DNA from: a virus
Taxonomy: Duplodnaviria; Heunggongvirae; Uroviricota; Caudoviricetes
DNA: 64,000 bases
Direction: 5' to 3' (one strand)
Virus record (IMG/VR): IMGVR_UViG_3300029702_000002
The notes under the pieces are model-generated. The model was not told the DNA's origin. It worked only from the letters and a program-made list of their open reading frames with translations, and searched no databases. Positions 1 through 62,573 of the stretch are shown here, one piece after another. The position numbers and the translations under genes were made by a program. The stretch's first letter is position 1, and the number at the start of each line of letters is the position of its first letter.

Positions 1-908
1 TTACGTGATACCTCCTGGCTTATGCCTAATGCTGGGAAGTAACTACGCGCAGTACGGCGCAAATCTCGGGGTGTAAATGGCTCAAGCTCCATCAGTTCTG
101 GTCGTTCCAGAATACGACGTAATGCCTGGGCTATTGCCACTTTAGACATAGGAAGGTCTTTCCCGATTTTTTTATTCGAAGGCACGAGCCACTGGCTGTC
201 TTTACCATATTCGAACAACTCTTCAATACAAGTGCGCATTAATGAGCTTAAAGGCAGAGAATGCTCACGGGCAGATTTGTTCCTCTTGCCTTGATTCCAA
301 ACCCCACGCTTAAGATTGAACTCACTTTTTTTAGCCCGCAGTACTTCGTCAGGTCGTCTTGCGGATACAAGACATAGCCTGGCCGCCCATTTTGTACCAG
401 CACACACATTGAAGTAGTCCCATATATTCCAGAACACCCATACCTCTGCGTCGGTCAGCTTCCGCTCGCGAGGTGTGGGCTTTGCGCCACCGGCAACTTT
501 GTTAAGTGACATATCGTTTAACGGTGACACGTCTATCATCCCCTGGAAGGCGCACCAGCTAAGGAACTGCTTCATCAGAGAGAAAACGCGGCGGCCCATA
601 ACAATTTTGCCATCCAGTATTAGTGGGTTGACCAGTTGGTTCACCATGAACCTATTAATGTCACTTACTTTTACATCGGCAATGTGCGGCAAAACATGTA
701 TCAAAATACAATGAACAGCGATCTCTGGCCGACGTCTGGTTATCAGCAGAGATAAGCGAGTGAATAACATGAATGCGTCCGAGAATCTCATGTCATTGCT
801 GACCTGGGAGATCATAACGGCCTGCATTTGAGATGCTCTTTCGAGATACTCTATCGCCTCTTTTGAGGTGTTCTCCGCAGCGCGTGCTCTGTCAAAGCTA
901 TTTTTCAT
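1..908 (-). CDS. int: Tyrosine integrase (phage integrase family), partial; C-terminus outside window
   Basis: Minus-strand ORF from ATG at 908 with no stop in window; translation ends ...FTPRDLRRTARSYFPALGISQEV matching integrase box II region, with an upstream ARRPDEV...HSLPLS box I-like region. Confidence 0.6.
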   Translation of the reverse strand, partial: MKNSFDRARAAENTSKEAIEYLERASQMQAVMISQVSNDMRFSDAFMLFTRLSLLITRRRPEIAVHCILIHVLPHIADVKVSDINRFMVNQLVNPLILDGKIVMGRRVFSLMKQFLSWCAFQGMIDVSPLNDMSLNKVAGGAKPTPRERKLTDAEVWVFWNIWDYFNVCAGTKWAARLCLVSARRPDEVLRAKKSEFNLKRGVWNQGKRNKSAREHSLPLSSLMRTCIEELFEYGKDSQWLVPSNKKIGKDLPMSKVAIAQALRRILERPELMELEPFTPRDLRRTARSYFPALGISQEVSR

Positions 909-4457: not shown

Positions 4458-4661
4458 GCGTTCTGCAATCACACTCGCTCAGTGTGTCCCATTTCGGTAA
4501 CGAGGCTGGAAACTGACCTCGCTGGTGTTTGGCTTATTAGGCTACTGCCAGATAGACTTCTTCGTTTGCACTTGTATTTAAGTTCAAACAGTCGCGTCTC
4601 AACGAAAACAAAGTCATCTTATACATAAAAGATAAGTAAGTAAATACTTATCATTGTGTTT

Positions 4662-8482: not shown

Positions 8483-8714
8483 TTTGACTTCCCTTTATTT
8501 ATATTTATCGTAGGTATTAGTTAACCAAAACACGAGCAGTGTCACAATAATTCCATAACTTATTATTTCCACTAGTGATTAATACCACATCAACTTTACG
8601 GTTCATAAATTAAATTATCAAAGCTGACAGATTAACTAAATTTAAGTACCCTTTTCGCACACTTGACGCTTGCCGCGTCTAAACTGTTCATCCTATATCA
8701 ACAGAATAAAAAAC

Positions 8715-9860
8715 ATGAAATACATAAAATCTTCTTCGTTGCTGGCATTAACTTTGCTTTTTAGCTCTGGATTCGTTAACGCAGACAATAAACAAACGTT
8801 GATAGAAGCCGCTACCGCAGGTGATACCGCAGCACAAAGTGAGTTAGGGACAAATTATTTGGATGGTGTCAATGGTTTTGATAAGGATGTAGTTGAGGCA
8901 AAGAAGTGGATTGATCTCGCTGCAGAAAAGGGAGATAAAGTAGCATATTATGCACTTGGAGTTATGTACACATTTGGCGAGGGTGTAGATAAAGACCTAA
9001 ATAAAGCTGTTGAGTACTACAAACTTGCGGGGGATGCTCGTGAAGGTAGAGCCTACAACAATCTTGGTGCTATTTATCAAAAGGGGATGCTTGGTAAAGT
9101 AGATCATGCACTCGCCATTAAATACTTCAAACTAGCCTCTGATGTCGGGTATGTTAAAGCAACTTCAGTTCTTGGGGCGTATTACCAATATGGTAAAGGC
9201 GTTAAAAAGAATTATAAAAAGGCTTTTACTTATTACAAAAAGGCGGCAGACCAAGGCAGTTCAGAAGCTATGATAGGATTAGGAATACTATACGATGATG
9301 GGTTAGGCGTTAAACGCAATGATGCAGAAGCAGTTAAGTGGTATAAAAAGGCAGCGGAACTTGGAAACGCCGACGCCATAACCAATCTTGGCATTATGTA
9401 TGAGAATGGGGAAGGTGTAAAAAAGGACTATAAAAAAGCAGCCGACCTTTATCAGACTGCTTGCAATAAAGGAGAAAAAAGAGGCTGTGAATACATTGCT
9501 GAACTGAAAGAAAGCGGAAAATATCGAGTATCTGATTCCAAAGCCAAATCAAAATCAGATGTACAGCGACTTATTGCTAAATCCATTGATAAAGGCGTTA
9601 ACGCAACATTTACCTGGCAGGGTGATGATGCCGTCTTCACCGCTAATGATGGCAAAGTTGACTGCACCTTCTTGAAGGATTTTTCAGAGAAAGGAGGCAA
9701 TCTGGCTACCTCGTTTGTTTGCACCGATAACGTTCAAATCATCCTGAAGCAATTCAGAGATACCAAGAATGCCTACCTCGCGGTAATGACTGACAACTTC
9801 AACACAGAAGTTAAATCATTTTCGGTCAATGTTTACGTGACTAATACTGGTTCAAACTAA
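8715..9860 (+). CDS. Secreted Sel1-repeat (TPR-like) protein
   Basis: Signal peptide MKYIKSSSLLALTLLFSSGFVNA then at least 6 Sel1-type repeats (G-x-x-Y/N-x-x-G-x-G-V-x-K-D/N-x-x-x-A-x-x-W/Y-Y-K-x-A-A); start taken at ATG 8715 inside longer ORF 8670. Confidence 0.7.
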   Translation: MKYIKSSSLLALTLLFSSGFVNADNKQTLIEAATAGDTAAQSELGTNYLDGVNGFDKDVVEAKKWIDLAAEKGDKVAYYALGVMYTFGEGVDKDLNKAVEYYKLAGDAREGRAYNNLGAIYQKGMLGKVDHALAIKYFKLASDVGYVKATSVLGAYYQYGKGVKKNYKKAFTYYKKAADQGSSEAMIGLGILYDDGLGVKRNDAEAVKWYKKAAELGNADAITNLGIMYENGEGVKKDYKKAADLYQTACNKGEKRGCEYIAELKESGKYRVSDSKAKSKSDVQRLIAKSIDKGVNATFTWQGDDAVFTANDGKVDCTFLKDFSEKGGNLATSFVCTDNVQIILKQFRDTKNAYLAVMTDNFNTEVKSFSVNVYVTNTGSN

Positions 9861-12455: not shown

Positions 12456-12498
12456 GTGCTTTCCTTTGTTTTTTAAACAAATTGTTTTCTAGTATTAG

Positions 12499-13248
12499 TT
12501 AATTAGATAGGGGATCAATAAACCGCCGTGCTTCTTCCAGTTCTTCTGGAAAGTGGGCGGAAATAAGGCGCTCTGGAACGATTTCCATTAGCCAGATAGC
12601 GGAGAAAATTGCGCGTATGCGCTTGCTGCGAGGTATGGTGCGCAAACGCTCCAGAATCCACTCAAAATAGCTTTCCTGAATCGGGTTGAACTGCATGTCT
12701 CCCATATGCTTAAAGCTAACAAGAGAGTCATCCAGACGGGTTGTTGCGCGTCTGGCTAATTTCTCTTCAAATATCTCAATCAGTTCTGGCTGCCACAAAT
12801 GCTGTGGGCGCGGCAGCTTGTCCCACAGCCGTCGTGCAGCTGCGGAAAGAACGGTGGAGATAAAGTAGTCGTATGAGCAGCAATAGCGATCCGCAAACTG
12901 GCGTGCTTTCCATAGCGACGTTTTGTTGGCAGTCGACAACTCCTGATAAGGCAGGCGTTTTAACCCGGTGGTGAACGGAGCTGTTTCAAAGTGTTCGCGA
13001 CCGTGCGTCAGCATGATATTTGAGTACTGACGTTTGTATGCCTCCGTAAAAAGACAGGTGGCCATGAGAGGATGCATGTCGCGGTAATCAAACCACTTCG
13101 TCTCGAAGAGTTCAGCCTCGTCTTTACAGCGCGACAAACCAATGTTTTCAGCGACCCACTTGTCCATAACAGCGGTATTCCACTCTGTCATGAAGTCGTA
13201 CTGGTCGTTGTCGATGGTATCGAAAAAGATTTGGCTCATGTGGCTCAC
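12499..13248 (-). CDS. Hypothetical protein (249 aa), possibly replication-associated
   Basis: ORF immediately upstream of helicase in same orientation. Confidence 0.55.
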   Translation of the reverse strand: MSHMSQIFFDTIDNDQYDFMTEWNTAVMDKWVAENIGLSRCKDEAELFETKWFDYRDMHPLMATCLFTEAYKRQYSNIMLTHGREHFETAPFTTGLKRLPYQELSTANKTSLWKARQFADRYCCSYDYFISTVLSAAARRLWDKLPRPQHLWQPELIEIFEEKLARRATTRLDDSLVSFKHMGDMQFNPIQESYFEWILERLRTIPRSKRIRAIFSAIWLMEIVPERLISAHFPEELEEARRFIDPLSN

Positions 13249-13355
13249 CTGGTAGGTAGTTACTTACTTATCACAATGAGCGGATGATAGCGACTGGTGG
13301 CAGTTTTTGGAAGTGGAAACGGAAGGGAGTTGTTCTGGTGGTGTCTTTTAAAAGA

Positions 13356-13410
13356 CCTGCTTCCGTATATATTTAATAAGTTACTTATTATTTATATATA
13401 CAGAAGCAGG
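13356..13410. repeat. 55-bp AT-rich near-palindrome, copy 1 (identical to 44652-44706)
   Basis: CCTGCTTCCGTATATATTTAATAAGTTACTTATTATTTATATATACAGAAGCAGG read in both places. Confidence 0.9.
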
Positions 13411-13521
13411 CATAACTTGTCGTCTTAGACGCCCAGAAGCTCTACACTTTGAGCCTGTTAAATTGATTAAAAACTTATGTGTAAAATAGAACGCATTAGT
13501 CAGTAGCAAAGAGATGCAATA

Positions 13522-14289
13522 ATGGACGATTTATCGGTATACGCGAGATCATTGGATAAGGCTAAATACTATGTTTACTGTCTCTATGATACAGAAGACA
13601 AGATGAAAAGACCGTTTTACATAGGAAAAGGCAAATCGACTCGTTGTCTCGATCACATCAAGTATCCCGATGACTCTCCCAAATCCATGCGGATCAAAGA
13701 ACTTTTGGCTAATAAAAAATTAGGCATAGATATACTTCGTCATGGTATGGATGAAACCACAGCCAAACTTGTTGAGGCGACATGCATCGACCTTATGGGG
13801 GTCGGAGAGCTTACGAATAAGGTACGAGGAAGTGGTTCCATGATGGGCAGAATATCACTGGACGCCTACCATCACTTAGTGCTGCAAGAGGAAACTGAAA
13901 TTGCTCCTGAGCACGCCGGTCTTGCCTTCCTGCTAAACAGCACCTACAAGTCAGGAATGTCCGCTCTGGCATTATATGAAGCTACGCGTGGCGTATGGGC
14001 AAAGGTTCCAAGAGACGAGAATCTCAAATATGCCTACGCTACATATGGTGGGCTGATAATGGAAGTTTATCAGATTGAATGCTGGGTCAAAGCCGGTTCT
14101 CAGCAGTACTTTACAAGGGATATAGCTCTTGGCCCCGACACAAAACGTTATGAATTTGTTGGCAGAATAGCCGATGAGCATATTAGAAAACTGTATGTAG
14201 GCAAATTAATCAAGAAGCCACCAAGCTACGGTAGCCCTTTTGTGAAGGTTGGGGTGGTTAGGACTGAACATAGTGTTAGCGCGGCATAA
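13522..14289 (+). CDS. GIY-YIG nuclease domain protein (free-standing, 255 aa)
   Basis: N-terminal YYVYCLYD...PFYIGKGKSTRCLDH matches GIY-YIG catalytic motif; lone plus-strand gene in minus-strand region. Confidence 0.7.
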   Translation: MDDLSVYARSLDKAKYYVYCLYDTEDKMKRPFYIGKGKSTRCLDHIKYPDDSPKSMRIKELLANKKLGIDILRHGMDETTAKLVEATCIDLMGVGELTNKVRGSGSMMGRISLDAYHHLVLQEETEIAPEHAGLAFLLNSTYKSGMSALALYEATRGVWAKVPRDENLKYAYATYGGLIMEVYQIECWVKAGSQQYFTRDIALGPDTKRYEFVGRIADEHIRKLYVGKLIKKPPSYGSPFVKVGVVRTEHSVSAA

Positions 14290-14341
14290 AGCTGACACTG
14301 TAGTTATGCATTGGCGCAATGTACGCGCCAATGCATGATTT

Positions 14342-14701
14342 TTAACCTTTCTTCATCAACTCTCGTTTGATTTCATCGGTACGCATCGTGACATCGGCAG
14401 CGGTGATCGCCTCATTCAATTTCACGATGTCCTCGATTTCCTGCGGTGACTTCTCTGCCAGATGGAAAATGGCTGCTCGAATCACGTCAGAACGAGTGAA
14501 CTTCTCGAAGCGAGGGATGAACTTCATCATCTCCAGCAGTTCGAAGTATTCGTCCTCCAGTGACATTGTGCGGCTTTTAATTTTCTCTTTGCCACGAGTC
14601 GGGCGTCCCTGTGGTCTGACTGGTTGGCGCAAAGGAGTTGTGTTCTTAGCCGGTGCATCAGGCTCTTTGCGCTTTGCTAGGTCACCCATTTTCATGGACA
14701 T
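14342..14701 (-). CDS. ParG-like small partition protein (basic N-terminal tail, putative ribbon-helix-helix C-terminus)
   Basis: 119-aa ORF translationally coupled (ATGA) to ParA-like gene. Confidence 0.5.
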   Translation of the reverse strand: MSMKMGDLAKRKEPDAPAKNTTPLRQPVRPQGRPTRGKEKIKSRTMSLEDEYFELLEMMKFIPRFEKFTRSDVIRAAIFHLAEKSPQEIEDIVKLNEAITAADVTMRTDEIKRELMKKG

Positions 14702-15369
14702 TATTCTTCTTCCTCCAGACTCAACAGATAATCTACAAATTCTTCAAACTCGGCTTCCGCCTTTTTGTCGCGCTCGCTACCGGTCATTTCAAAGATAGAA
14801 CGACCAGACTCTTCCGCATCATCATAGACGTTGCGGTTATATAGATTGACTGGCGCAGACTCGATTCCAAACGTCTCAACAATCTCTTTAGCCGCCAGAA
14901 TGCGAGACACTTGTGATGGCAAAGCCGGGCACTGGTTCATGACCGCGCGGACCTTCACTTTATCGTTTACATTGCGAACATTGTCGATAATAGGATCGAT
15001 GTCACGTAAAGATTTCAAATCACGACGCTTAGGACGCAGCGGGATAATGATAACGTCAGCCATCAGCATCGCTTGTCGCTGAATTTCGGAGTCGAAGCCA
15101 CCAGCATCTACCACTACAAACTCAGCTCTACCCTGAAGCGATTTTAGGTGCTTAATGATGTCATCCTGAACGTATGCAAAAGGAATCAGCTCCAGGTCTT
15201 CGTTCTGTCGACGGTCTTCACACCAGCTCGTTGTCGTGCGCTGAATATCTATATCGGTAATATAAACCTTCTTCTTCTTTTTGACTTTCAGGCAAACGGC
15301 AATTTGCTGGGCAACGGTGGATTTGCCAGGCCCGCCCTTTGTGCCGCCAACCACAAAGATCTTGGTCAT
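14701..15369 (-). CDS. ParA/MinD-family partition ATPase
   Basis: Deviant Walker A KIFVVGGTKGGPGKST at N-terminus, 222 aa. Confidence 0.85.
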   Translation of the reverse strand: MTKIFVVGGTKGGPGKSTVAQQIAVCLKVKKKKKVYITDIDIQRTTTSWCEDRRQNEDLELIPFAYVQDDIIKHLKSLQGRAEFVVVDAGGFDSEIQRQAMLMADVIIIPLRPKRRDLKSLRDIDPIIDNVRNVNDKVKVRAVMNQCPALPSQVSRILAAKEIVETFGIESAPVNLYNRNVYDDAEESGRSIFEMTGSERDKKAEAEFEEFVDYLLSLEEEE

Positions 15370-15687
15370 TGGAGAGTTCCCTTTGCGTATATAATTATCG
15401 TCTGAAACAACTTGTTTTCTTATATGTGATATAGCCTAAATGCCTACGGCTGCGGTGTAAAGGTTAAATGGTAGGTTGTGATTAACAATTGGCAAACATA
15501 GCTTGTATTTGTCTGTTGAAAAAAGTAACAATGACCTCTATATTACAAGTACGGTGATATGCCGTACACAATTTGATAATGCACACGTAATGGGCTATAG
15601 CCTTTTAAAGTAATTTTTGAGTCGAAAACTCAGTTTGAACAGAGGAGATTGATGGCCTTCCTACATCACGGCCATCAGGAGGAATAC

Positions 15688-15957
15688 ATGTCAGCACTAA
15701 AAAAGCAGCGCATCGATTTGAGATTAACCGATGACGATAAAAGCATCATCGAGGAAGCTGCCGCAATGTCTAACCAGAGCATTACTCAGTTTATGGTTAG
15801 CAGTGCATCTGAACGTGCCGTGAAAGTTATAGAGCAACACCGTAGACTAGTTCTGAATGAAGAATCCTGGAATCTGGTTATGGACGCTATAAGCAATCCT
15901 CCGGCACCGAACGACAAGCTGAAACGAGCTGCTGATCGTCTGAAAAGCATGGAGTAG
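15688..15957 (+). CDS. DUF1778/TacA-like antitoxin
   Basis: Small ORF immediately upstream of GNAT toxin; ATG 15688 preceded by CAGGAGGAA. Confidence 0.7.
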   Translation: MSALKKQRIDLRLTDDDKSIIEEAAAMSNQSITQFMVSSASERAVKVIEQHRRLVLNEESWNLVMDAISNPPAPNDKLKRAADRLKSME

Positions 15958-15964
15958 TTTACTC

Positions 15965-16486
15965 GTGGATAATATAAAGATAGAAATTTTCTCTGGAGAG
16001 AAAGATTATGATTTGAATGGTTTTGATTGCGGTGAAGAATCACTAAATGCCTTTTTAACCAACCACTTAAAAAGGCAGCATGAGGGAAAAATTCTTCGCG
16101 CTTATGTGCTTTGCACGAAAGAAGGCAGACCAAAAGTGTTAGGGTATTACACTTTGTCAGGTAGCTGCTTTGAAAAGGAGTCCTTACCTTCAAGAAGCCA
16201 GCAAAAGAAGGTACCTTATCGGAATGTTCCAAGTGTTACTTTGGGTAGGCTGGCTTTGGACAAGTCCCTTCAAGGTCAAGGATTTGGCTCAATGCTTGTA
16301 ACACATGCAATGCGCGTTGTGTACAATGCATCTCTTGCTGTAGGCATTCATGGACTTTTCGTTGAGGCGTTAAATGACAAAGCCAAGGCGTTTTATAAAA
16401 GTTTAGACTTTATCCAGCTGGTTGGTAACAACGAGCGTTCTTTGTTCTATCCTACAAAATCTATCGAAAAATTGTTCGAAGAATAA
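15965..16486 (+). CDS. GNAT acetyltransferase toxin (TacT/AtaT-like)
   Basis: 173-aa GNAT fold with LQGQGFGSMLV acetyl-CoA motif, 8 nt after antitoxin stop; GTG start. Confidence 0.75.
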   Translation: MDNIKIEIFSGEKDYDLNGFDCGEESLNAFLTNHLKRQHEGKILRAYVLCTKEGRPKVLGYYTLSGSCFEKESLPSRSQQKKVPYRNVPSVTLGRLALDKSLQGQGFGSMLVTHAMRVVYNASLAVGIHGLFVEALNDKAKAFYKSLDFIQLVGNNERSLFYPTKSIEKLFEE

Positions 16487-17626: not shown

Positions 17627-17948
17627 TTTTTACGCCATACGCGGCTAACCCCAAAAGCAGTGCGGTAATAATGAACGACGTTATTTTAGAAACAATGCCG
17701 CCAAAGAACCCACTTGAGATGGAATCTAACCGGTTAAGGAGTTTGTCCAGATTGGAGTGTTGAATACTATGTTGCGCCGGGGTCATATCACCAAAGTAGG
17801 TTTTCAGCTGATCATTGACCTCCTGGCCAATTTCTTCACGTAGCTCTTTACCTAATTTGCCAACAACCTCCCGAGCAACGATCGCGGCAATACGCTCAAC
17901 TTGCTCTGTTGTAACGCCCGCCATCTCGTTCGACATGTTTTCCTCCAT
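17613..17948 (-). CDS. Holin-like membrane protein (single C-terminal TM)
   Basis: Position upstream of endolysin; C-terminal ITSFIITALLLGLAAYGV segment. Confidence 0.4.
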   Translation of the reverse strand: MEENMSNEMAGVTTEQVERIAAIVAREVVGKLGKELREEIGQEVNDQLKTYFGDMTPAQHSIQHSNLDKLLNRLDSISSGFFGGIVSKITSFIITALLLGLAAYGVKSGLQ

Positions 17949-44651: not shown

Positions 44652-44706
44652 CCTGCTTCCGTATATATTTAATAAGTTACTTATTATTTATATATACAGA
44701 AGCAGG
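44652..44706. repeat. 55-bp AT-rich near-palindrome, copy 2 (identical to 13356-13410), about 120 bp upstream of terS
   Basis: Exact 55/55 identity to copy 1. Confidence 0.9.
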
Positions 44707-45006: not shown

Positions 45007-45897
45007 TTATGCCGGTAAAGCAATTTCTAACGGTTTATCCAAAGGTTGTTTGTCGAATGCCAGCAGTGGCAGCGTGTCAGGCAGTCGACGACCAAAGTCA
45101 GGGTTTCGATACACCCCATACAACGGAGACGTAAAGCTCAGGTTGTGAATGTCCTTGAGCAACTTCACAATGCTGGCCTCGTCCACCAGACTGTCGGCAA
45201 TGTCCTGAATCGTCGTGCCACGATTCCGCCCAGCTTTTGCCAGGGAACTGTTCTTATGGTAGTCCGCCACCAGATCACGCAGTGCACGGCGACGACGAGA
45301 CTCGCTCATTGCGAACAACTCTTTGACGATCGCCTCGTTATCACCCGGGTCGGAACGAAAATGGCGCTGGAATACACGCAGTGCACTTTCATAGCTCTTC
45401 GGTCGCTCAGGGCGGATGAACTTAAACCCTGCTTTCATGGCGAAGGGATTGTATTTGCTCATCGAGGACTGGATCTCAATGATTGGCCGGTCATGCATCC
45501 TGCTAACCAGGTTAATCATTCGATAAGAGACGCCTACGCCACGATACTGAGTATCCACAACTGAGCGACTGATCACCGCAAAGTTGTTATTCACGTACCG
45601 ACCCCAGTACTGGTTAGCCACGGTGGTATTAGTGGTTGGTTTCAACTTAGGAAACATGCGGTGGCGAGGTGCCAACAGTAGTTTCGGGTAAGCCATAACC
45701 ACGACGCCCACCAGACGGTCATCAAGTTCGCAGCGATAGTAAGTTGGCGCGAAAGGTTTGCCGTCTGTTTTGTAGTGAAGCGACTTAAGAGCGTGCCAGT
45801 CCTCTACAGTTCCCTTTGTAACAGTCATTCGCTCCAGAAAGTCCAGATGACGCGGAAACTCTTCAGGGCGGTAGCGTTTAATGATGATGTCCGTCAT
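45007..45897 (-). CDS. GNAT-like acetyltransferase-fold protein with C-terminal extension (296 aa)
   Basis: VVDTQYRGVGVSYRMI resembles GNAT motif A (Q/R-x-x-G-x-G/A); 4-nt overlap with upstream ATPase. Confidence 0.45.
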   Translation of the reverse strand: MTDIIIKRYRPEEFPRHLDFLERMTVTKGTVEDWHALKSLHYKTDGKPFAPTYYRCELDDRLVGVVVMAYPKLLLAPRHRMFPKLKPTTNTTVANQYWGRYVNNNFAVISRSVVDTQYRGVGVSYRMINLVSRMHDRPIIEIQSSMSKYNPFAMKAGFKFIRPERPKSYESALRVFQRHFRSDPGDNEAIVKELFAMSESRRRRALRDLVADYHKNSSLAKAGRNRGTTIQDIADSLVDEASIVKLLKDIHNLSFTSPLYGVYRNPDFGRRLPDTLPLLAFDKQPLDKPLEIALPA

Positions 45898-46559
45898 GAA
45901 TGGACCTCATCATGACTACCATTGTGATATTCCACCTTCACGCGTTCTTTGTAGTGCTTGGTGATCTGCATATCCGGGCGCAGCGCGTTCTTCAGGTCTT
46001 CGTGAGTCGTCGCCACCATTACCGTCGCACCAACCTTTCGCGCGGCACGCTGGAGGTTAGACGCCACAACCTGAGCGGTTACACGGTCGAGAACAGCGCC
46101 GAACTCGTCAGCAGCCCACACTTTAGCGCCTGACTCAATCAGTTTGGCAATCTTGAGACGATATTTCTGGCCGTCTGACATTTCAGAAGGCTTGCGAACA
46201 AACAGATATGCATCGTTCAGACCAGCCATAGATAACAACCCAAGCGCATCACTGGTCGTTTTGCCCAACTGATCGATGACGTTAACCTCATTATCGAAGG
46301 TAAAATCATCGATGGAGGCTACAGACAGCCCTTCATCCTTCATCTGTCGTTGCAACTCGCGCAGCACAACGGATTTGCCGGAACCGGATTGGCCGGTGAT
46401 GTACACCACATCGCCCTGCTTCACTTCCAGCTCCAGATTGTCGTAAAGCGTCCACTCTTTTTCGTCCAGGCCAAGCCCGAACGACTCAGCGATTTCCAAC
46501 GTGCGCGTGGTTTTATTTACGCGTGTCTGAAACGATATGTTGATGATGTATTTGCTCAT
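45894..46559 (-). CDS. ABC-type ATPase (single nucleotide-binding domain, 221 aa)
   Basis: Walker A GQSGSGKS, signature-like MSDGQKYR, Walker B VWAADEF, H-loop TTHE. Confidence 0.7.
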   Translation of the reverse strand: MSKYIINISFQTRVNKTTRTLEIAESFGLGLDEKEWTLYDNLELEVKQGDVVYITGQSGSGKSVVLRELQRQMKDEGLSVASIDDFTFDNEVNVIDQLGKTTSDALGLLSMAGLNDAYLFVRKPSEMSDGQKYRLKIAKLIESGAKVWAADEFGAVLDRVTAQVVASNLQRAARKVGATVMVATTHEDLKNALRPDMQITKHYKERVKVEYHNGSHDEVHS

Positions 46560-47224
46560 GCAGCCATCTCCCCGGAAGAGATCTTCTCCGCATATGCCAC
46601 AAATGCGTCTACCCCGCTTTCTCCCGTCATTTCTTCCATATGGGCAAGCAAATCACCAACAACAATGGCAGAGCCAGCAGGGAGCGTTTTAAAGCCCAAT
46701 ACGTCGACAACACGTACTTCTTCCGCTGCAACTTCACGACTGATCTCGGTGTGTTCATCCTTCTGTCGTTTAGTTTCTTCGCCAAGATCGATAACTAGCG
46801 AGTCGGTGTCCATTTCTTCTGTCATACTGCCAACGAGAACATTCAACTCACGCTCTTCAAAGCCGAAAACCTCGATATCGTCCAGAACAAGCGACTCAAG
46901 CTCTTTCTGTAGCTTAATTGCATCGTAATCAATGCTGGCAAGTCGGTTATCTTCAAGGCGCTTCGCACGAACCTCGTCATCACTGAGATCATCGCGAACA
47001 ATAACCGGTACGCGCTCAAGTCCAGCAAAAATTGCAGCCTCACGGCGGCCGTGGCCAGTAATAATTACGTCGTTCTTATCGACCGTAATTGGCTGGTCAA
47101 ATCCGCGCTTTTTAATGGCTGCGGCCAGATCTCGGATCTGCTGTTCATCATGCTTTTTGGCATTCATCTCATAGGGAATAAGATCTGCCGGGTCGCGATA
47201 TACGATTTCAAACTTTTTGGTCAT
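46556..47224 (-). CDS. ParB-like nuclease domain protein
   Basis: ParB N-terminal motif ITGHGRREAA; start at ATG 47224 overlapping upstream stop. Confidence 0.65.
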   Translation of the reverse strand: MTKKFEIVYRDPADLIPYEMNAKKHDEQQIRDLAAAIKKRGFDQPITVDKNDVIITGHGRREAAIFAGLERVPVIVRDDLSDDEVRAKRLEDNRLASIDYDAIKLQKELESLVLDDIEVFGFEERELNVLVGSMTEEMDTDSLVIDLGEETKRQKDEHTEISREVAAEEVRVVDVLGFKTLPAGSAIVVGDLLAHMEEMTGESGVDAFVAYAEKISSGEMAA

Positions 47225-47922
47225 TACATACGCTCCTTGTAGTAGTCGACCAGCCACACCAGAGCCTCACCAGCGTTCTCCATTTCATTACCGGTGTTAA
47301 TAGCCTGCTCTTTGATGATGTTTTTTATGGTTTCTGCAACACGATCTGACGCATCGAAAGTTACTTTGAAGCGCATGGTCTGATGTTCCGCACCCACACG
47401 TTCGGTTTTCTCTCGTTTGTCGGTATCGACAGGCTCATCACTACCACGAGACAACGCCTCCAGTGCTTCAAGGTCGATTGCCGCCTCTTTTGCTAAAACC
47501 ATCGAGATTTCGTCGTCATACGGGGCGATTTCAGACAGTTGATAGTCAAGTTCTGACTGAATTTCTTCAATGAAGCGTTGCAATGCGATTTGGTCGTCTT
47601 CACCGTATCGCTCGTTGTCCACCAGTGACATCTGTTTAGCTACGACATCGCTAATTTTGCCCACAGAAAGCACCGGAACCGTTGAAATTCCTTGCTCAAT
47701 AGCAGCACGCCAGCGATGTTCGCCGCCGAGGATTTCAAAAAATCCATCTTCAAGTTCACGAGCCAAAATTGGCTTAAAAAAGCCCAATTTTTCGATAGAA
47801 CCTTTCAGTTTTTCAAAATTCTGCGCACCAACCGAATTGGTGTTCCAGGTATTCGGGCGAAGGTTGGCAACATCAACCTGCAAAATCGTGATTTTTACAT
47901 CCATTTTATTGCTACAATCCAC
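47224..47922 (-). CDS. ParB-like nuclease domain protein
   Basis: ParB N-terminal motif ILGGEHRWRAA. Confidence 0.65.
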   Translation of the reverse strand: MDCSNKMDVKITILQVDVANLRPNTWNTNSVGAQNFEKLKGSIEKLGFFKPILARELEDGFFEILGGEHRWRAAIEQGISTVPVLSVGKISDVVAKQMSLVDNERYGEDDQIALQRFIEEIQSELDYQLSEIAPYDDEISMVLAKEAAIDLEALEALSRGSDEPVDTDKREKTERVGAEHQTMRFKVTFDASDRVAETIKNIIKEQAINTGNEMENAGEALVWLVDYYKERM

Positions 47923-49852: not shown

Positions 49853-50317
49853 ATGAAGTCTCCCATACTGTTCACTTTCTGTTCTAAAACTATCATGAAA
49901 TACTCGCTTCTCCCTCTACTAACGTTACCAGTGTTGATGCTTACCGCGTGCCAATCACGCCCAATATCAATCCATGACGCCAAACCAGCACCGCAGGCCA
50001 AAGTGTTCAAGTATCAAAGCGCAGCGCCAGCTACGTTGGTGGTAATGAGAGACACAGGTTTTGTAGGAGCTGGATGTGATGCTTCCATTTTCATCAACGG
50101 CGAAACTGTCGCAAAACTGGCTACAGGCGAAAAAGCGACTTTCCATTTAAATGCCGGAGAATTAATTGTGGGTGCATCTCTTGAAGGTGCAGGTTTATGT
50201 GCTCTAAACCCCGCTCGTCAAGAGCGAGAAACGACTCTGAAGAATGGAGACACAAAAGCGTTCAGGGTGTTCACCAGCAATTCTGGTGACATCGACATTC
50301 TGCCAACAACTCTGTGA
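49853..50317 (+). CDS. Lipoprotein (lipobox LTAC)
   Basis: AGGGAGA site before ATG 49853; internal ATG 49895 would give a canonical 19-aa lipoprotein signal peptide. Confidence 0.6.
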   Translation: MKSPILFTFCSKTIMKYSLLPLLTLPVLMLTACQSRPISIHDAKPAPQAKVFKYQSAAPATLVVMRDTGFVGAGCDASIFINGETVAKLATGEKATFHLNAGELIVGASLEGAGLCALNPARQERETTLKNGDTKAFRVFTSNSGDIDILPTTL

Positions 50318-50321
50318 TGAC

Positions 50322-50846
50322 ATGACAACCAAAGATATTACCTACGGTATCCAAGCTGAACTCTGGCCGCGAGATTACACTAACGTTGAAAAACTACTGA
50401 TGTTCTGGCGCAGAGAACAAATTCCTGTAAGGGTCACTCTCGAAGATGGCCAGGCGTTTTGCATGTACGTTTATGGCCTCATGCCATCTCGTAACAAAGT
50501 TGACCTTTGCCCAGCCCCTTTTGACAAAGAAAATCGTATAAGGCTCCCACTTGAACGCATTAGTACAATTGAATCAGGTGTGGTTGACAGTATCGCTCAC
50601 GATTTCAAAGGTCGACTAACAGTTCACCCTGATTATGTCGATAATCGGCCATCACGCCGCGATTTTTTTGCAATTTGCAACCAAGCCTACAAAGCAAACA
50701 AATCTATAAGGGTGTACATGGCGGATGGCCGTGAAATTGAGGGGGTGTCAGCAGGCGCAGATGCTTGTCAGGTTACACTACGTGTCGAGAACGTTAGAAA
50801 AATAGTTGTTTTGTTCGATTGGGTTGAACGAATTTTGCCTTTTTGA
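50322..50846 (+). CDS. Hypothetical cytoplasmic protein (174 aa)
   Basis: ATG 5 nt after lipoprotein stop. Confidence 0.5.
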   Translation: MTTKDITYGIQAELWPRDYTNVEKLLMFWRREQIPVRVTLEDGQAFCMYVYGLMPSRNKVDLCPAPFDKENRIRLPLERISTIESGVVDSIAHDFKGRLTVHPDYVDNRPSRRDFFAICNQAYKANKSIRVYMADGREIEGVSAGADACQVTLRVENVRKIVVLFDWVERILPF

Positions 50847-59281: not shown

Positions 59282-61315
59282 TTACTTAACCTGGTGGCCT
59301 GGTTTAGCACCAGCATCCGGGCTTAACAGGAAGATATCTTTCCCGCCGGGGCCAGCAGCCATCACCATGCCTTCGGAGATACCGAAGCGCATTTTACGCG
59401 GAGCCAGGTTGGCCACCATAATGGTGTGACGACCAATCAGTGCCTGTGGATCTGGATAAGCGGAACGAATGCCGGAGAAGACATTACGTTTTTCGCCACC
59501 GAGATCCAGCGTCAGGCGAAGCAGTTTGTCAGAACCTTCGACAAACTCCGCGTTTTCAATCAGAGCCACGCGCAGGTCAACTTTGGCGAAGTCGTCAAAG
59601 GTGATGGTTTCCTGAATCGGATCATCTGCCAGTGGGCCAGTTACTGGCGCGGCAGCGGCTTTTACTTCCTCTTTGGATGCTTCCACCAGTGCTTCAACCT
59701 GCTTCATGTCGATGCGGTTATACAGTGCCTTGAACGGATTCACTTTATGGCCCAGCAGCGGTTGCTGGATACCATCCCAGGTCAGTTCTGTATTCAGGAA
59801 TGCTTCTGCACGTTCAGTCAGTTTCGGCAGTACCGGTTTCAGGTACGTCATCAGCACGCGGAACAGGTTAATGCCCATAGAGCAAATCGCCTGCAGATCG
59901 GCATCGCGCCCTTCCTGCTTCGCCACCACCCACGGAGCCTGTTCATCGACATAGCGGTTAGCCAGATCAGCCAGCGCCATGATTTCACGAATCGCTTTAC
60001 CAAATTCGCGGCTTTCCCATGCTTCACCAATCACTTCAGCAGCATCAGTAAAGGTTTTGTACAGTTGCGGGTCAGCCAGTTCGCTTGCCAGCACGCCGTC
60101 AAAACGCTTGTTGATAAAGCCTGCATTACGGGAGGCCAGGTTAACCACTTTGTTCACGATATCGGCATTCACGCGCTGAACGAAATCCTCCAGGTTGAGA
60201 TCGATATCATCAATGCGCGAAGAGAGTTTCGCAGTGTAGTAGTAACGCAGGCTGTCAGCGTCAAAATGATTCAGCCAGGTGCTGGCTTTAATAAAGGTGC
60301 CGCGAGACTTGGACATCTTCGCACCGTTCACCGTCACATAGCCATGAACAAACAGGTTGGTCGGCTTGCGGAAATTGCTGCCTTCCAGCATGGCAGGCCA
60401 GAACAGGCTGTGGAAGTAAACGATATCTTTACCGATGAAGTGGTACAGCTCGGCGGTGGAGTCTTTCTTCCAGTATTCGTCGAAGCTGGTAGTGTCGCCG
60501 CGTTTGTCGCACAGATTCTTGAAGGAACCCATGTAGCCAATCGGCGCGTCCAGCCAGACGTAGAAATATTTGCCCGGTGCGTTCGGAATTTCAAAACCGA
60601 AGTACGGCGCATCGCGGGAGATATCCCACTGTTGCAGGCCAGATTCAAACCACTCCTGCATTTTGTTTGCCACCTGCTCCTGCAACGCACCGCTGCGGGT
60701 CCATGCCTGCAACATTTCGCTGAAAGAAGGCAGATCAAAGAAGAAGTGTTCGGAATCACGCATTACCGGCGTAGCACCAGAAACTACCGATTTCGGCTCG
60801 ATCAGTTCAGTCGGGCTGTAAGTAGCGCCGCAGACTTCACAGTTATCGCCGTATTGATCCGGTGCTTTACATTTCGGGCAGGTGCCTTTCACAAAACGGT
60901 CCGGCAGGAACATGCCTTTTTCCGGATCGTACAGCTGAGAGATGGTGCGGTTTTTAATAAAACCGTTCTCTTTCAGGCGAGTATAGATAAGCTCGGACAA
61001 CTGACGGTTCTCTTCGCTGTGCGTCGAGTGATAGTTGTCATAGCTGATGTTAAAGCCTGCAAAATCAGTCTGGTGTTCCTGACTCATTTCGCCAATCATC
61101 TGTTCCGGTGTGATACCAAGCTGCTGTGCTTTCAGCATGATCGGTGTGCCGTGGGCATCGTCGGCACAGATGAAATTAACCTCGTGGCCGCGCATTCGCT
61201 GGTAACGAACCCAGACATCAGCCTGGATGTGCTCCAGCATATGGCCGAGGTGGATTGAGCCGTTAGCGTACGGCAGCGCGCACGTCACCAGAATTTTCTT
61301 CGCGACTTGGGTCAT
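59282..61315 (-). CDS. metG: Methionine--tRNA ligase
   Basis: Translation from [25 protein letters not shown] (HIGH motif), KMSKS motif, C-terminal ...AKPGHQVK; start placed at internal Met 44 of the 720-aa ORF to give the 677-aa enterobacterial MetG. Confidence 0.95.
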
Positions 61316-61472
61316 AGTAGGCATTACTTCTTTGTAGTGAAAAGGGGCTTGATAGTAACAAAATGGCCTTATGTCTGCCATGTGATAACAGCATTTCTCA
61401 TAAATGATTAAATGTCGTAGCTGGAGTACACTACAAGGCGACAATTGCGCAAATTAAAATAAAGGAGACGGG

Positions 61473-62573
61473 ATGAGCGAGTCCAAATCGCCGGATGCCC
61501 TGAGAGCAATGGTAGCCGGTACGCTGGCTAATTTTCAGCACCCAACCCTGAAACACAACCTGACTACGCTTAAAGCGTTACACCATGTTGCGTTGATGGA
61601 TGACACACTGCATGTCGAACTAATCATGCCTTTCGTGTGGAATAAGCCTTTTGAAGACCTGAAAGAGCAATGTAGTGGTGATCTGCTCCGTATCACTAGC
61701 GCAAAGGCTATTGACTGGAAGCTGTCGTACAACATTGCCACGCTTAAGCGCGTCAAAAACCAACCAGGCATTAATGGCGTGAAGAACATCATTGCGGTCA
61801 GCTCCGGTAAAGGCGGCGTGGGTAAATCCTCCACGGCGGTAAACCTGGCGCTGGCGCTGGCGGCTGAAGGTGCGAAAGTTGGTATTCTGGATGCCGATAT
61901 CTACGGGCCATCAATTCCAACCATGCTGGGCGCGGAAAACCAACGTCCAACCTCACCGGACGGTACTCACATGGCACCTATCATGTCTCATGGCCTGGCA
62001 ACCAATTCAATTGGCTATCTGGTCACCGACGACAATGCAATGGTGTGGCGTGGACCGATGGCCAGCAAGGCGCTGATGCAGATGTTGCAGGAAACACTGT
62101 GGCCTGATCTGGACTATCTCGTTCTCGATATGCCGCCGGGCACTGGTGATATTCAGTTGACGCTGGCGCAGAACATTCCTGTAACTGGTGCGGTTGTGGT
62201 AACTACGCCGCAAGACATCGCGCTGATCGATGCGAAGAAAGGCATTGTGATGTTCGAAAAAGTCGAAGTGCCGGTACTGGGTATCGTCGAAAACATGAGT
62301 GTGCATATTTGCAGTAACTGCGGTCATCACGAGCCAATTTTTGGCACCGGTGGCGCACAGAAACTGGCCGAGAAATACAACACGCAGTTGTTAGGCCAAA
62401 TGCCACTTCATATCTCTCTTCGTGAAGATCTGGATAACGGAACACCAACCGTTATTAGTCGTCCAGATAGCGAATTTACGGCTATTTATCGTGACCTCGC
62501 AGATCGCGTTGCTGCCCAAATGTATTGGCAAGGTGAAGTAATACCTGGCGAAATCGCATTCCGCGCAGTGTGA
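61473..62573 (+). CDS. apbC: Fe-S cluster carrier ATPase ApbC/Mrp
   Basis: AVSSGKGGVGKSSTAVNLALALA Walker A and CxxC motif; near-identical to enterobacterial Mrp by recall; divergent from metG as in E. coli. Confidence 0.95.
   Translation: MSESKSPDALRAMVAGTLANFQHPTLKHNLTTLKALHHVALMDDTLHVELIMPFVWNKPFEDLKEQCSGDLLRITSAKAIDWKLSYNIATLKRVKNQPGINGVKNIIAVSSGKGGVGKSSTAVNLALALAAEGAKVGILDADIYGPSIPTMLGAENQRPTSPDGTHMAPIMSHGLATNSIGYLVTDDNAMVWRGPMASKALMQMLQETLWPDLDYLVLDMPPGTGDIQLTLAQNIPVTGAVVVTTPQDIALIDAKKGIVMFEKVEVPVLGIVENMSVHICSNCGHHEPIFGTGGAQKLAEKYNTQLLGQMPLHISLREDLDNGTPTVISRPDSEFTAIYRDLADRVAAQMYWQGEVIPGEIAFRAV

Follow-up and report, generated by a model that had tools for sequence, protein, structure and literature searches.

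Why would a phage that carries an integrase also carry a pair of genes for plasmid partition? The question is raised by a stretch of 64,000 nucleotides from a tailed-phage genome (Caudoviricetes; IMG/VR record IMGVR_UViG_3300029702_000002), here called the window and always meant at its full length, in which two adjoining minus-strand genes at 14342-15369 encode a small ParA-type ATPase and a basic protein of 119 amino acids (aa), its presumed partner. An earlier account of this DNA, made from the letters alone (the sequence-only reading), saw in them a type Ib partition module within an integrated prophage, and was left with a choice between a dual lifestyle and the reuse of ParA for another role such as exclusion. 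The results of this work suggest a simpler answer. The window belongs to a phage-plasmid of the SSU5/pHCM2 type, and the pair is, with a probability of roughly 0.8, its active partition module, in use while the prophage persists as a circular plasmid of low copy number. The module is thus an ordinary one, and not the oddity of an integrated prophage.

A gene pair on a circular phage-plasmid

Both of the window segments compared with plasmid records (13300-15700 and 56500-64000) are 100% identical to pRHB14-C22_3, a circular, non-mobilizable Escherichia coli plasmid of 108,954 bp, and through these two segments the window maps to positions 17901-81913 of that record with one small indel. Escherichia phage CMS-2020a matches segment 13300-15700 at 99.8% identity, and Salmonella phage SSU5 matches the par genes at 86.5%. 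The replicon carries phage structural genes and plasmid genes together, and is nearly identical to circular plasmids of about 100-115 kb and to phages of the SSU5/pHCM2 group, a supergroup of phage-plasmids defined in PMC7969092. Of 5,426 complete E. coli genomes, 264 (about 5%) have the par locus, at 304 places, every one of them on a plasmid and none on a chromosome; altogether over 700 plasmids have kept the gene pair. The window is one unbroken stretch of a circular phage-plasmid of about 109 kb, and the integrated prophage of the sequence-only reading has to be given up. The plasmid state is the normal lysogenic state of this element and, as all 304 places are plasmid-borne, there is no puzzle of a partition module within an integrated element. 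The search for circular episomal forms in lysogens, proposed earlier as a check, has already been answered for a close relative, Cyrano/pLF82, which exists as an episome at 5.5 copies per chromosome, makes virions and is inducible by ciprofloxacin (PMC9928086). Phage-plasmids of this kind are frequent in E. coli, Klebsiella, Salmonella Typhi and Shigella, and resistance genes are part of the cargo of some.

The genes for methionyl-tRNA synthetase (metG) and an Fe-S carrier (apbC/mrp), at 59282..62573, look chromosomal, and integration into a chromosome was suspected from them. The suspicion was rejected, as both genes are borne by the phage-plasmid; their identity is 97-100% from plasmid to plasmid and 90-95% with the copy on the E. 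coli chromosome.

The two par genes and their parts are as follows (all on the minus strand).

14701..15369: parA, a small ParA/ParF-type ATPase of 222 aa without an N-terminal DNA-binding domain
15316..15348: deviant Walker A motif G8-G-T-K11-G-G-P-G-K16-S-T18 (KGGPGKST), with signature lysine K11, read from the translation
14342..14701: partner gene, encoding a basic protein of 119 aa, a candidate centromere-binding protein
14669..14689: N-terminal peptide M5-G-D-L-A-K10-R11 of the partner
14570..14635: basic proline-rich arm, residues 23-44 (P-L-R-Q-P-V-R-P-Q-G-R-P-T-R-G-K-E-K-I-K-S-R), conserved and predicted to be disordered
14450..14578: ribbon-helix-helix (RHH) core, residues 42-84, with a strand K-S-R-T-M-S-L, helix A (50-59) and helix B (70-82, from T-R-S-D-V-I-R-A-A-I)
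14348..14446: C-terminal extension beyond the RHH core, helices 86-97 and 101-118

The ATPase is as the sequence-only reading described it, a ParA of 222 aa with a deviant Walker A (K11-G-G-P-G-K16-S-T). Residues G8, G9, K11, G12, G13, G15, K16 and S17 are invariant among 18 homologues, down to 36% identity, and so are the Walker A' aspartates, the Walker B motif and a clade-specific P-x-R-P-K-R-R-D. The protein matches MipZ, AAA_31 and CbiA in Pfam and the 'ParA-like partition protein' family in PHROG; its best relative in the PDB is ParF of TP228 (4dzz; E 1.2e-10, residues 9-199), and it also matches a ParA (5u1g; E 1.2e-10, residues about 9-200). In size and layout (222 aa, Walker A at residues 8-18) it agrees with the small type Ib proteins, and on these comparisons it would be classed as a distant member of the type Ib ATPases, closest to ParF. 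It is 100% identical to a protein cluster of 386 members, and the ParA of these plasmids is already annotated.

What is new concerns its partner, which most records label 'hypothetical' and the Cyrano record calls a RelE/ParE toxin. The parA stop and the partner start overlap as TAATG, 10 nt downstream of a GGAGG, an arrangement that gives translational coupling, and the isoelectric point (pI) is 9.56 for the whole protein and 11.4 for residues 1-47; coupling to a basic protein, claimed earlier, is therefore confirmed. An alternative start at M3 (14695), two codons later, would give 117 aa and is the one used by the Prokaryotic Genome Annotation Pipeline (PGAP). Near this end M5, G6, D7, L8, A9 and K10 are invariant in the SSU5 group; L8 is invariant in distant partners too, and the peptide generalises family-wide to (G)-L-x-(D/G)-L-K-K/R. 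Conserved as well are the strand K-S-R-T-M-S-L, helix A, the motif T-R-S-D-V-I-R-A-A-I that opens helix B, and the last two helices. In ParG and Spo0J it is the N-terminal tail that contacts ParA and stimulates its ATPase activity and, by analogy, MGDLAKR is a candidate for such a tail.

Taken singly, the partner has no match in Pfam (neither to an RHH family nor to ParG) or in NCBIfam, its PHROG (5111) is of unknown function, and no meaningful PDB hit came from its sequence or from two profiles of its family. A structural model (AlphaFold2, AF2) built from 82 sequences has a predicted local distance difference test score (pLDDT) above 90 for residues 41-119, with helices at 50-59, 70-82, 86-97 and 101-118, and below 60 in the proline-rich arm; a model from 12 close sequences was poor, and a Foldseek search with the partner model found no matches. 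The family as a whole is more telling. Its profile of 130 sequences aligns with CopG (hhalign probability 60.7%, E 8e-5) such that residues 42-81 are in register with CopG 3-39, and of the 21 proteins encoded directly after ParA homologues of the clade nine match RHH_3 and eight RHH_1 (best E 1e-5). Because of this alignment and of these matches in syntenic relatives we assign the partner family to the RHH fold, the partner itself very probably having this fold, with added helices at its C-terminal end to which a role in higher-order oligomerisation might be ascribed. The RHH-like segment seen by the sequence-only reading thus stands, and its C-terminal position does not, for the segment is central (about residues 42-84) and followed by two helices (86-118).

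Membership in a known family is another matter. With the sequences checked as references (CopG, 1b01; ParG, 1p94), only CopG gave a usable alignment; homology to ParG (PF09274), Arc or omega was rejected, all with hhalign probabilities below 1% (0.09% and 0.85% for ParG). 'ParG-like', as the partner had been called, holds as an analogy and fails as a family name: the protein is very probably a functional analogue of ParG and not a member of its family. The type Ib style of the pair (i.e., a small deviant-Walker ParA closest to ParF with a small RHH-type partner) is upheld. The family is narrow, as a search of 5.8 billion proteins yielded 25 members and one of 1.84 billion yielded 18 representatives; when the profile was widened with distant members it took in 104 proteins, mainly from Pseudomonas plasmids, several of which the Joint Genome Institute (JGI) names 'Arc/MetJ-type ribbon-helix-helix transcriptional regulator'. 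Judged by sequence, the partner is part of a larger family of ParA partners that has no Pfam entry and is spread over Acinetobacter and Pseudomonas plasmids and some chromosomes; this, like its assignment as the RHH partner of ParA, is a new point.

The pairing itself is conserved. A small partner open reading frame (ORF) lies directly 3' of the ParA homologue in most of 80 related loci, including those of a Xenorhabdus phage-plasmid, a P. syringae plasmid (where the pair adjoins a replicase gene) and Acinetobacter plasmids. Among the loci inspected it is also found on the chromosomes of Agarivorans, Shewanella and Alteromonas, between pilZ and hslVU; there (loci L010, L037-L058 and L060-L091) ParA is about 42-45% identical and its partner of RHH type, no repeat arrays are seen upstream, and the pair looks like a chromosomal orphan ParA system with some cargo. 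On the phage-plasmids, the par pair and a helicase gene of the backbone occupy essentially the same plasmids, with matching counts per genus. A natural lineage without par that retains the palindrome discussed below was sought for comparison, and none was available, the helicase and par plasmid sets being essentially identical.

The pair is also transcribed where a partition module should be. In Cyrano lysogens (overnight culture in lysogeny broth, LB; normalised read counts; background 9.8) ParA has 50 reads and the partner 89, next to 133 for RepA and 96 for the putative repressor. Structural genes are at background (5-12). The plasmid-borne apbC has 92 reads and metG a weak 16.

Taken as an active partition module, the pair would work in the following way. 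The partner would dimerise through its RHH fold and bind specific plasmid DNA; its flexible N-terminal tail (MGDLAKR) would contact ATP-bound ParA dimers on the nucleoid and stimulate their ATPase activity; and the resulting ParA gradient would space the plasmid copies, so that each daughter cell receives one and the plasmid is stabilised. In addition, the partner would probably repress the par promoter through a palindrome at about +8 to +21, to which we now turn.

The par promoter and a dispersed palindrome

The regulatory DNA upstream of parA contains the following features, together with further copies of one of them elsewhere in the window.

15401..15475, minus strand: par promoter/operator block of 75 bp, with -35 TTTACA (15456-15461), a 17-nt spacer and -10 TAGGCT (15433-15438), then the palindrome
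15405..15417, no strand: 13-bp palindrome AAACAA-C-TTGTTT (AAACAACTTGTTT; also written AAACAAGTTGTTT), 36 nt upstream of the parA ATG; candidate operator/centromere site
12475..12487, no strand: the palindrome a second time, 19 nt before the start of a DnaB-like helicase gene
44575, 44600, 53715, 54200, 54950, 55853, 56337, 57520, 59134 and 59185, no strand: further copies, from a motif scan of the window
14306..14336, no strand: 12-bp inverted repeat without mismatches, ATGCATTGGCGC-N7-GCGCCAATGCAT, in the gap that separates the partner gene from the convergent PD-T4-3-like gene

The -35 and -10 hexamers come from inspection by eye, and a consensus scanner did not call the promoter; it is on the reading by eye that the palindrome falls at about +8 to +21. 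The block is nearly identical in E. coli, Salmonella SSU5 and Klebsiella pJN2-26, when the coding DNA is only 80-86% identical, and its parts TTAGGCTA and ATAAGAAAACAnnTTGTTT are invariant across six lineages; going by this conservation, the promoter/palindrome block is under stronger constraint than the coding DNA. As a possible repeated site, the left part of the block is unique in the window. The palindrome, on the contrary, is not. With at most one mismatch, AAACAAnTTGTTT occurs 12 times in the window, when 0.51 are expected and none of 100 shuffles reaches 12, and 18 times in the whole plasmid against 0.25 expected. The shared early operator in the par promoter, noticed in the sequence-only reading, is thus substantiated as a sequence feature. 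All copies share one orientation relative to the downstream gene (the helicase, parA, terS and small genes at 53-59 kb), stand about 20-65 nt upstream of minus-strand gene starts and are mostly found just 3' of a GATAAT-like -10. The inverted repeat at 14306..14336 was tried as a centromere and rejected, because SSU5, Klebsiella and Cyrano do not have it and carry other genes next to the partner gene; it resembles a terminator and is no conserved part of par.

Several plasmid-borne relatives have centromere-like arrays of sites. An Acinetobacter locus (L059) has GTAAGTTAT repeated 9.4 times, and a Pseudomonas locus (L088) has TTGCGCAAG/C units with a 9-bp period upstream of parA, 17 of which are phased when counted by eye; TAACTTA units are found in a P. 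syringae plasmid, a mussel symbiont and other Acinetobacter plasmids. The core of the array unit in these relatives is an odd-centred palindrome of 7 bp, YAA-S-TTR, and in six relatives phased pairs of it stand both upstream of parA and immediately after the partner stop. The core of the SSU5-group palindrome, CAA-S-TTG, is also that of the 9-bp unit of the Pseudomonas locus L088 (GCAAsTTGC), and parallels TAA-S-TTA in the Acinetobacter and P. syringae relatives. In type Ib systems the DNA-binding partner autoregulates the par promoter. From this rule and the core common with L088 we tentatively suggest, as a possibility somewhat on the doubtful side, that the partner binds AAACAA-S-TTGTTT, that the roughly 18 copies act together as a dispersed centromere and as operators, and that the partner doubles as a genome-wide silencer of lytic and early genes in plasmid lysogeny. 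It would then be the RHH counterpart, within a phage, of KorB with its OB sites (RK2) or of omega (pSM19035).

Two observations fit this suggestion: the helix-turn-helix (HTH) regulator beside the integrase has no palindrome in its promoter region, and most genes downstream of palindromes are silent in lysogens, when the partner is expressed. Others weigh against it. A separate repressor could bind the palindrome; the Xenorhabdus and Morganella relatives have a nearly identical beta-strand and yet no palindrome upstream of parA; and TAA-S-TTA sites number 11 in this plasmid against about 20 expected, forming no array.

Alternative roles and the neighbouring genes

Several results speak against an active partition module. 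A search of the literature found no functional test for any member of the SSU5 group. A repeat finder and Tandem Repeats Finder (TRF) detected neither tandem nor phased repeats in 13200-15700, where there is a single palindrome only; this lone par palindrome is common to many other promoters, and the adjoining array usual in type Ib systems is not present in the SSU5 group. The NCBIfam model ParA_partition (NF041546) scores ParA at 115.7 bits, under its equivalog cutoff of 180, which places the protein, on sequence, in a related but distinct clade. Moreover, the homologues on the Shewanella, Alteromonas and Agarivorans chromosomes mean that the clade is not confined to plasmid partition.

These last homologues (in Agarivorans and Shewanella without repeats upstream), the missing array beside the present operon and the accessory cargo on its flanks (a PD-T4-3 defence gene and a TacAT toxin-antitoxin pair) could be taken to mean that the pair moves other cargo or serves exclusion or defence, partition being supplied in some other way. 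We consider this improbable: the pair goes with the helicase of the backbone from plasmid to plasmid and is expressed in lysogens alongside RepA, its plasmid relatives adjoin rep genes and have flanking site arrays, and the whole-plasmid annotation holds no other ParA-type partition ATPase, ApbC being an Fe-S carrier. PADLOC found no match for ParA and a negligible one for the partner, so that the reuse for exclusion entertained by the sequence-only reading finds no support, and neither does a role in defence. An element with a dual lifestyle, integrated or episomal, is a good deal less probable still. The integrase named earlier is indeed present (a site-specific tyrosine recombinase; window 1..908, minus strand, truncated by the window edge), and is transcribed in Cyrano lysogens (49.5 reads); according to a preprint, rare S. 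Agona chromosomes even contain an integrated plasmid bearing the SSU5 repB-parA region, a fragment without phage structural genes (10.1101/2025.09.12.675607). Against this stand the identity of both tested segments to one circular plasmid record (with the window ends at 17901 and 81913), the plasmid-borne metG-apbC and the count of 0 chromosomal places out of 304 in E. coli. For P1, plasmid multimers are resolved by Cre. Multimer resolution is also the more economical reading of the present integrase, because there are no chromosomal copies; most likely the enzyme does this, or integrates only rarely.

Another candidate for the partner of ParA is found elsewhere in the window.

46556..47922, minus strand: two proteins with a ParB N-terminal domain (Pfam ParB_N, 1.5e-8 and 3.3e-13)
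45007..46559, minus strand: two ABC-type ATPases, in one operon with the former, upstream of the terminase genes

Both parA and parB are named in papers on the SSU5 plasmid group, and if ParA worked with these two proteins (the 'parB' of SSU5 in the literature) the 119-aa protein would be a transcriptional regulator only. This is quite unlikely. The ParB_N genes lie 31 kb from parA, share an operon with the ABC-type ATPases immediately before the terminase genes, and are silent in Cyrano lysogens (5.0 and 9.5 reads), when ParA and the 119-aa protein are transcribed; because of this silence they are unlikely to be the partner of ParA in the plasmid state, and they probably act in the lytic cycle and not in partition. 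Small ParF-type ParAs, for their part, characteristically pair with an adjacent small RHH protein, and in the present clade this adjacency is kept far beyond phage-plasmids, at loci without a nearby ParB_N gene. As to the RelE/ParE label, which would turn the pair into an addiction module with the 119-aa protein as its toxin, its sole support is the annotation of CYRAN_29 in OV696614 and in Table 1 of PMC9928086. There is no RelE/ParE match in Pfam, NCBIfam or the PDB, the partner family aligns to CopG and its relatives match RHH_1 and RHH_3, and the gene upstream encodes a Walker ATPase and not an antitoxin; going by these comparisons the label is wrong, and an addiction module is hardly credible. 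The active partition module is left as the preferred explanation. It corrects the 'toxin' and 'parB' labels and could guide curing and stability experiments, leaving the understanding of partition unchanged.

The surroundings of the operon vary. The ORF convergent with it (13522..14289, plus strand), with a GIY-YIG domain, matches PD-T4-3 in PADLOC (E 1.3e-23) and LEM-3-like GIY-YIG in Pfam, and sits in a variable slot that other genes occupy in the Cyrano, SSU5 and Klebsiella relatives. Divergent from parA are the genes for TacA (DUF1778, RHH) and TacT (a GNAT acetyltransferase), a toxin-antitoxin pair at 15649..16486 (plus strand) that has a promoter to itself (TTGAAA-17-TATATT) and, at 15551-15569, the inverted repeat GTACGG-N7-CCGTAC. 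The toxin-antitoxin genes are on in Cyrano lysogens, with TacA/TacT the highest after CYRAN_43. A Sel1-repeat gene (8670..9860, plus strand), between the primase and the upstream replication genes and opposite to them in orientation, is not on the Cyrano and p4_0.2 maps of that region. Unexpected on a phage-plasmid is a 200-aa protein (50244..50846, plus strand) matching the Pfam family 'Repressor of phase-1 flagellin' (FljA-like; E 5e-83).

Two further motifs were noticed. A second family, TA(A/G)GTA-nn-TACTTACCTAT, occurs at 13253, 18000, 22221, 35633 and 42631 (also at 4631, 29134 and 41123), 5-50 nt ahead of where late operons (for lysis, tail fibre, tail and head) begin, and may be a late-promoter or activator site; the HTH regulator gene beside the integrase is preceded by the related GGTAAGCACTTACC (L093, 17278-17295). 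A long palindrome of 55 bp (CCTGCTTCCGTATATAT...ATATATACAGAAGCAGG) has two perfect copies 31 kb apart, at 13356-13410 and 44652-44706, the latter immediately preceding the terS-like gene with its pair of palindromic operators; the sequence could serve as a terminator, an insulator or a packaging-related site.

Comparison with known partition systems

The module would work like the type Ib systems ParF/ParG or par2 of pB171, save for one defining feature, the adjoining repeat-array centromere. The likeness to ParF-ParG-parH of TP228 is in the small deviant-Walker ATPase without a DNA-binding domain, for which ParF is the best PDB match, in the downstream gene for a small protein of RHH type, here presumably also a dimer, whose basic N-terminal tail is flexible, and in the operator, here a candidate one, within the par promoter. 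The differences are those of a separate clade: ParA and ParF are only about 25% identical, and the invariant P-x-R-P-K-R-R-D is specific to the present proteins; the partner has 119 aa against the 76 of ParG, no detectable homology to it and two extra C-terminal helices; and TP228 has an upstream array of tetramer boxes, which the present operon does not. In par2 of pB171 (ParA-ParB), also of type Ib, centromere repeats flank the operon on both sides (parC1 and parC2), and this layout is matched by the Acinetobacter and Pseudomonas relatives, with 9-bp-phased YAA-S-TTR upstream of parA and just after the partner stop.

For the dispersed palindrome the closest parallels are delta-omega (pSM19035, Inc18) and IncC-KorB (RK2), where the centromere-binding protein is also a global repressor with sites in several promoters, as the present partner, a candidate binder of the 13-bp palindrome in the par promoter and in about 17 others, might be. 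Each parallel is partial. KorB, whose 12 palindromic 13-bp operators are dispersed over RK2, is a ParB with an HTH, whereas the present partner is of RHH type; omega is an RHH protein, but binds arrays of 7-bp heptads and not single palindromes such as those found here. Among phages, finally, ParAB-parS of P1 and SopAB of N15 are of type Ia, with a large ParA bearing an N-terminal HTH and a ParB/SopB with an HTH and a CTPase fold, whereas the present module is type Ib-like and has an RHH partner; what it would have in common with them is the task, i.e., the segregation of a low-copy plasmid prophage, and perhaps, with N15, centromere sites dispersed in the phage genome.

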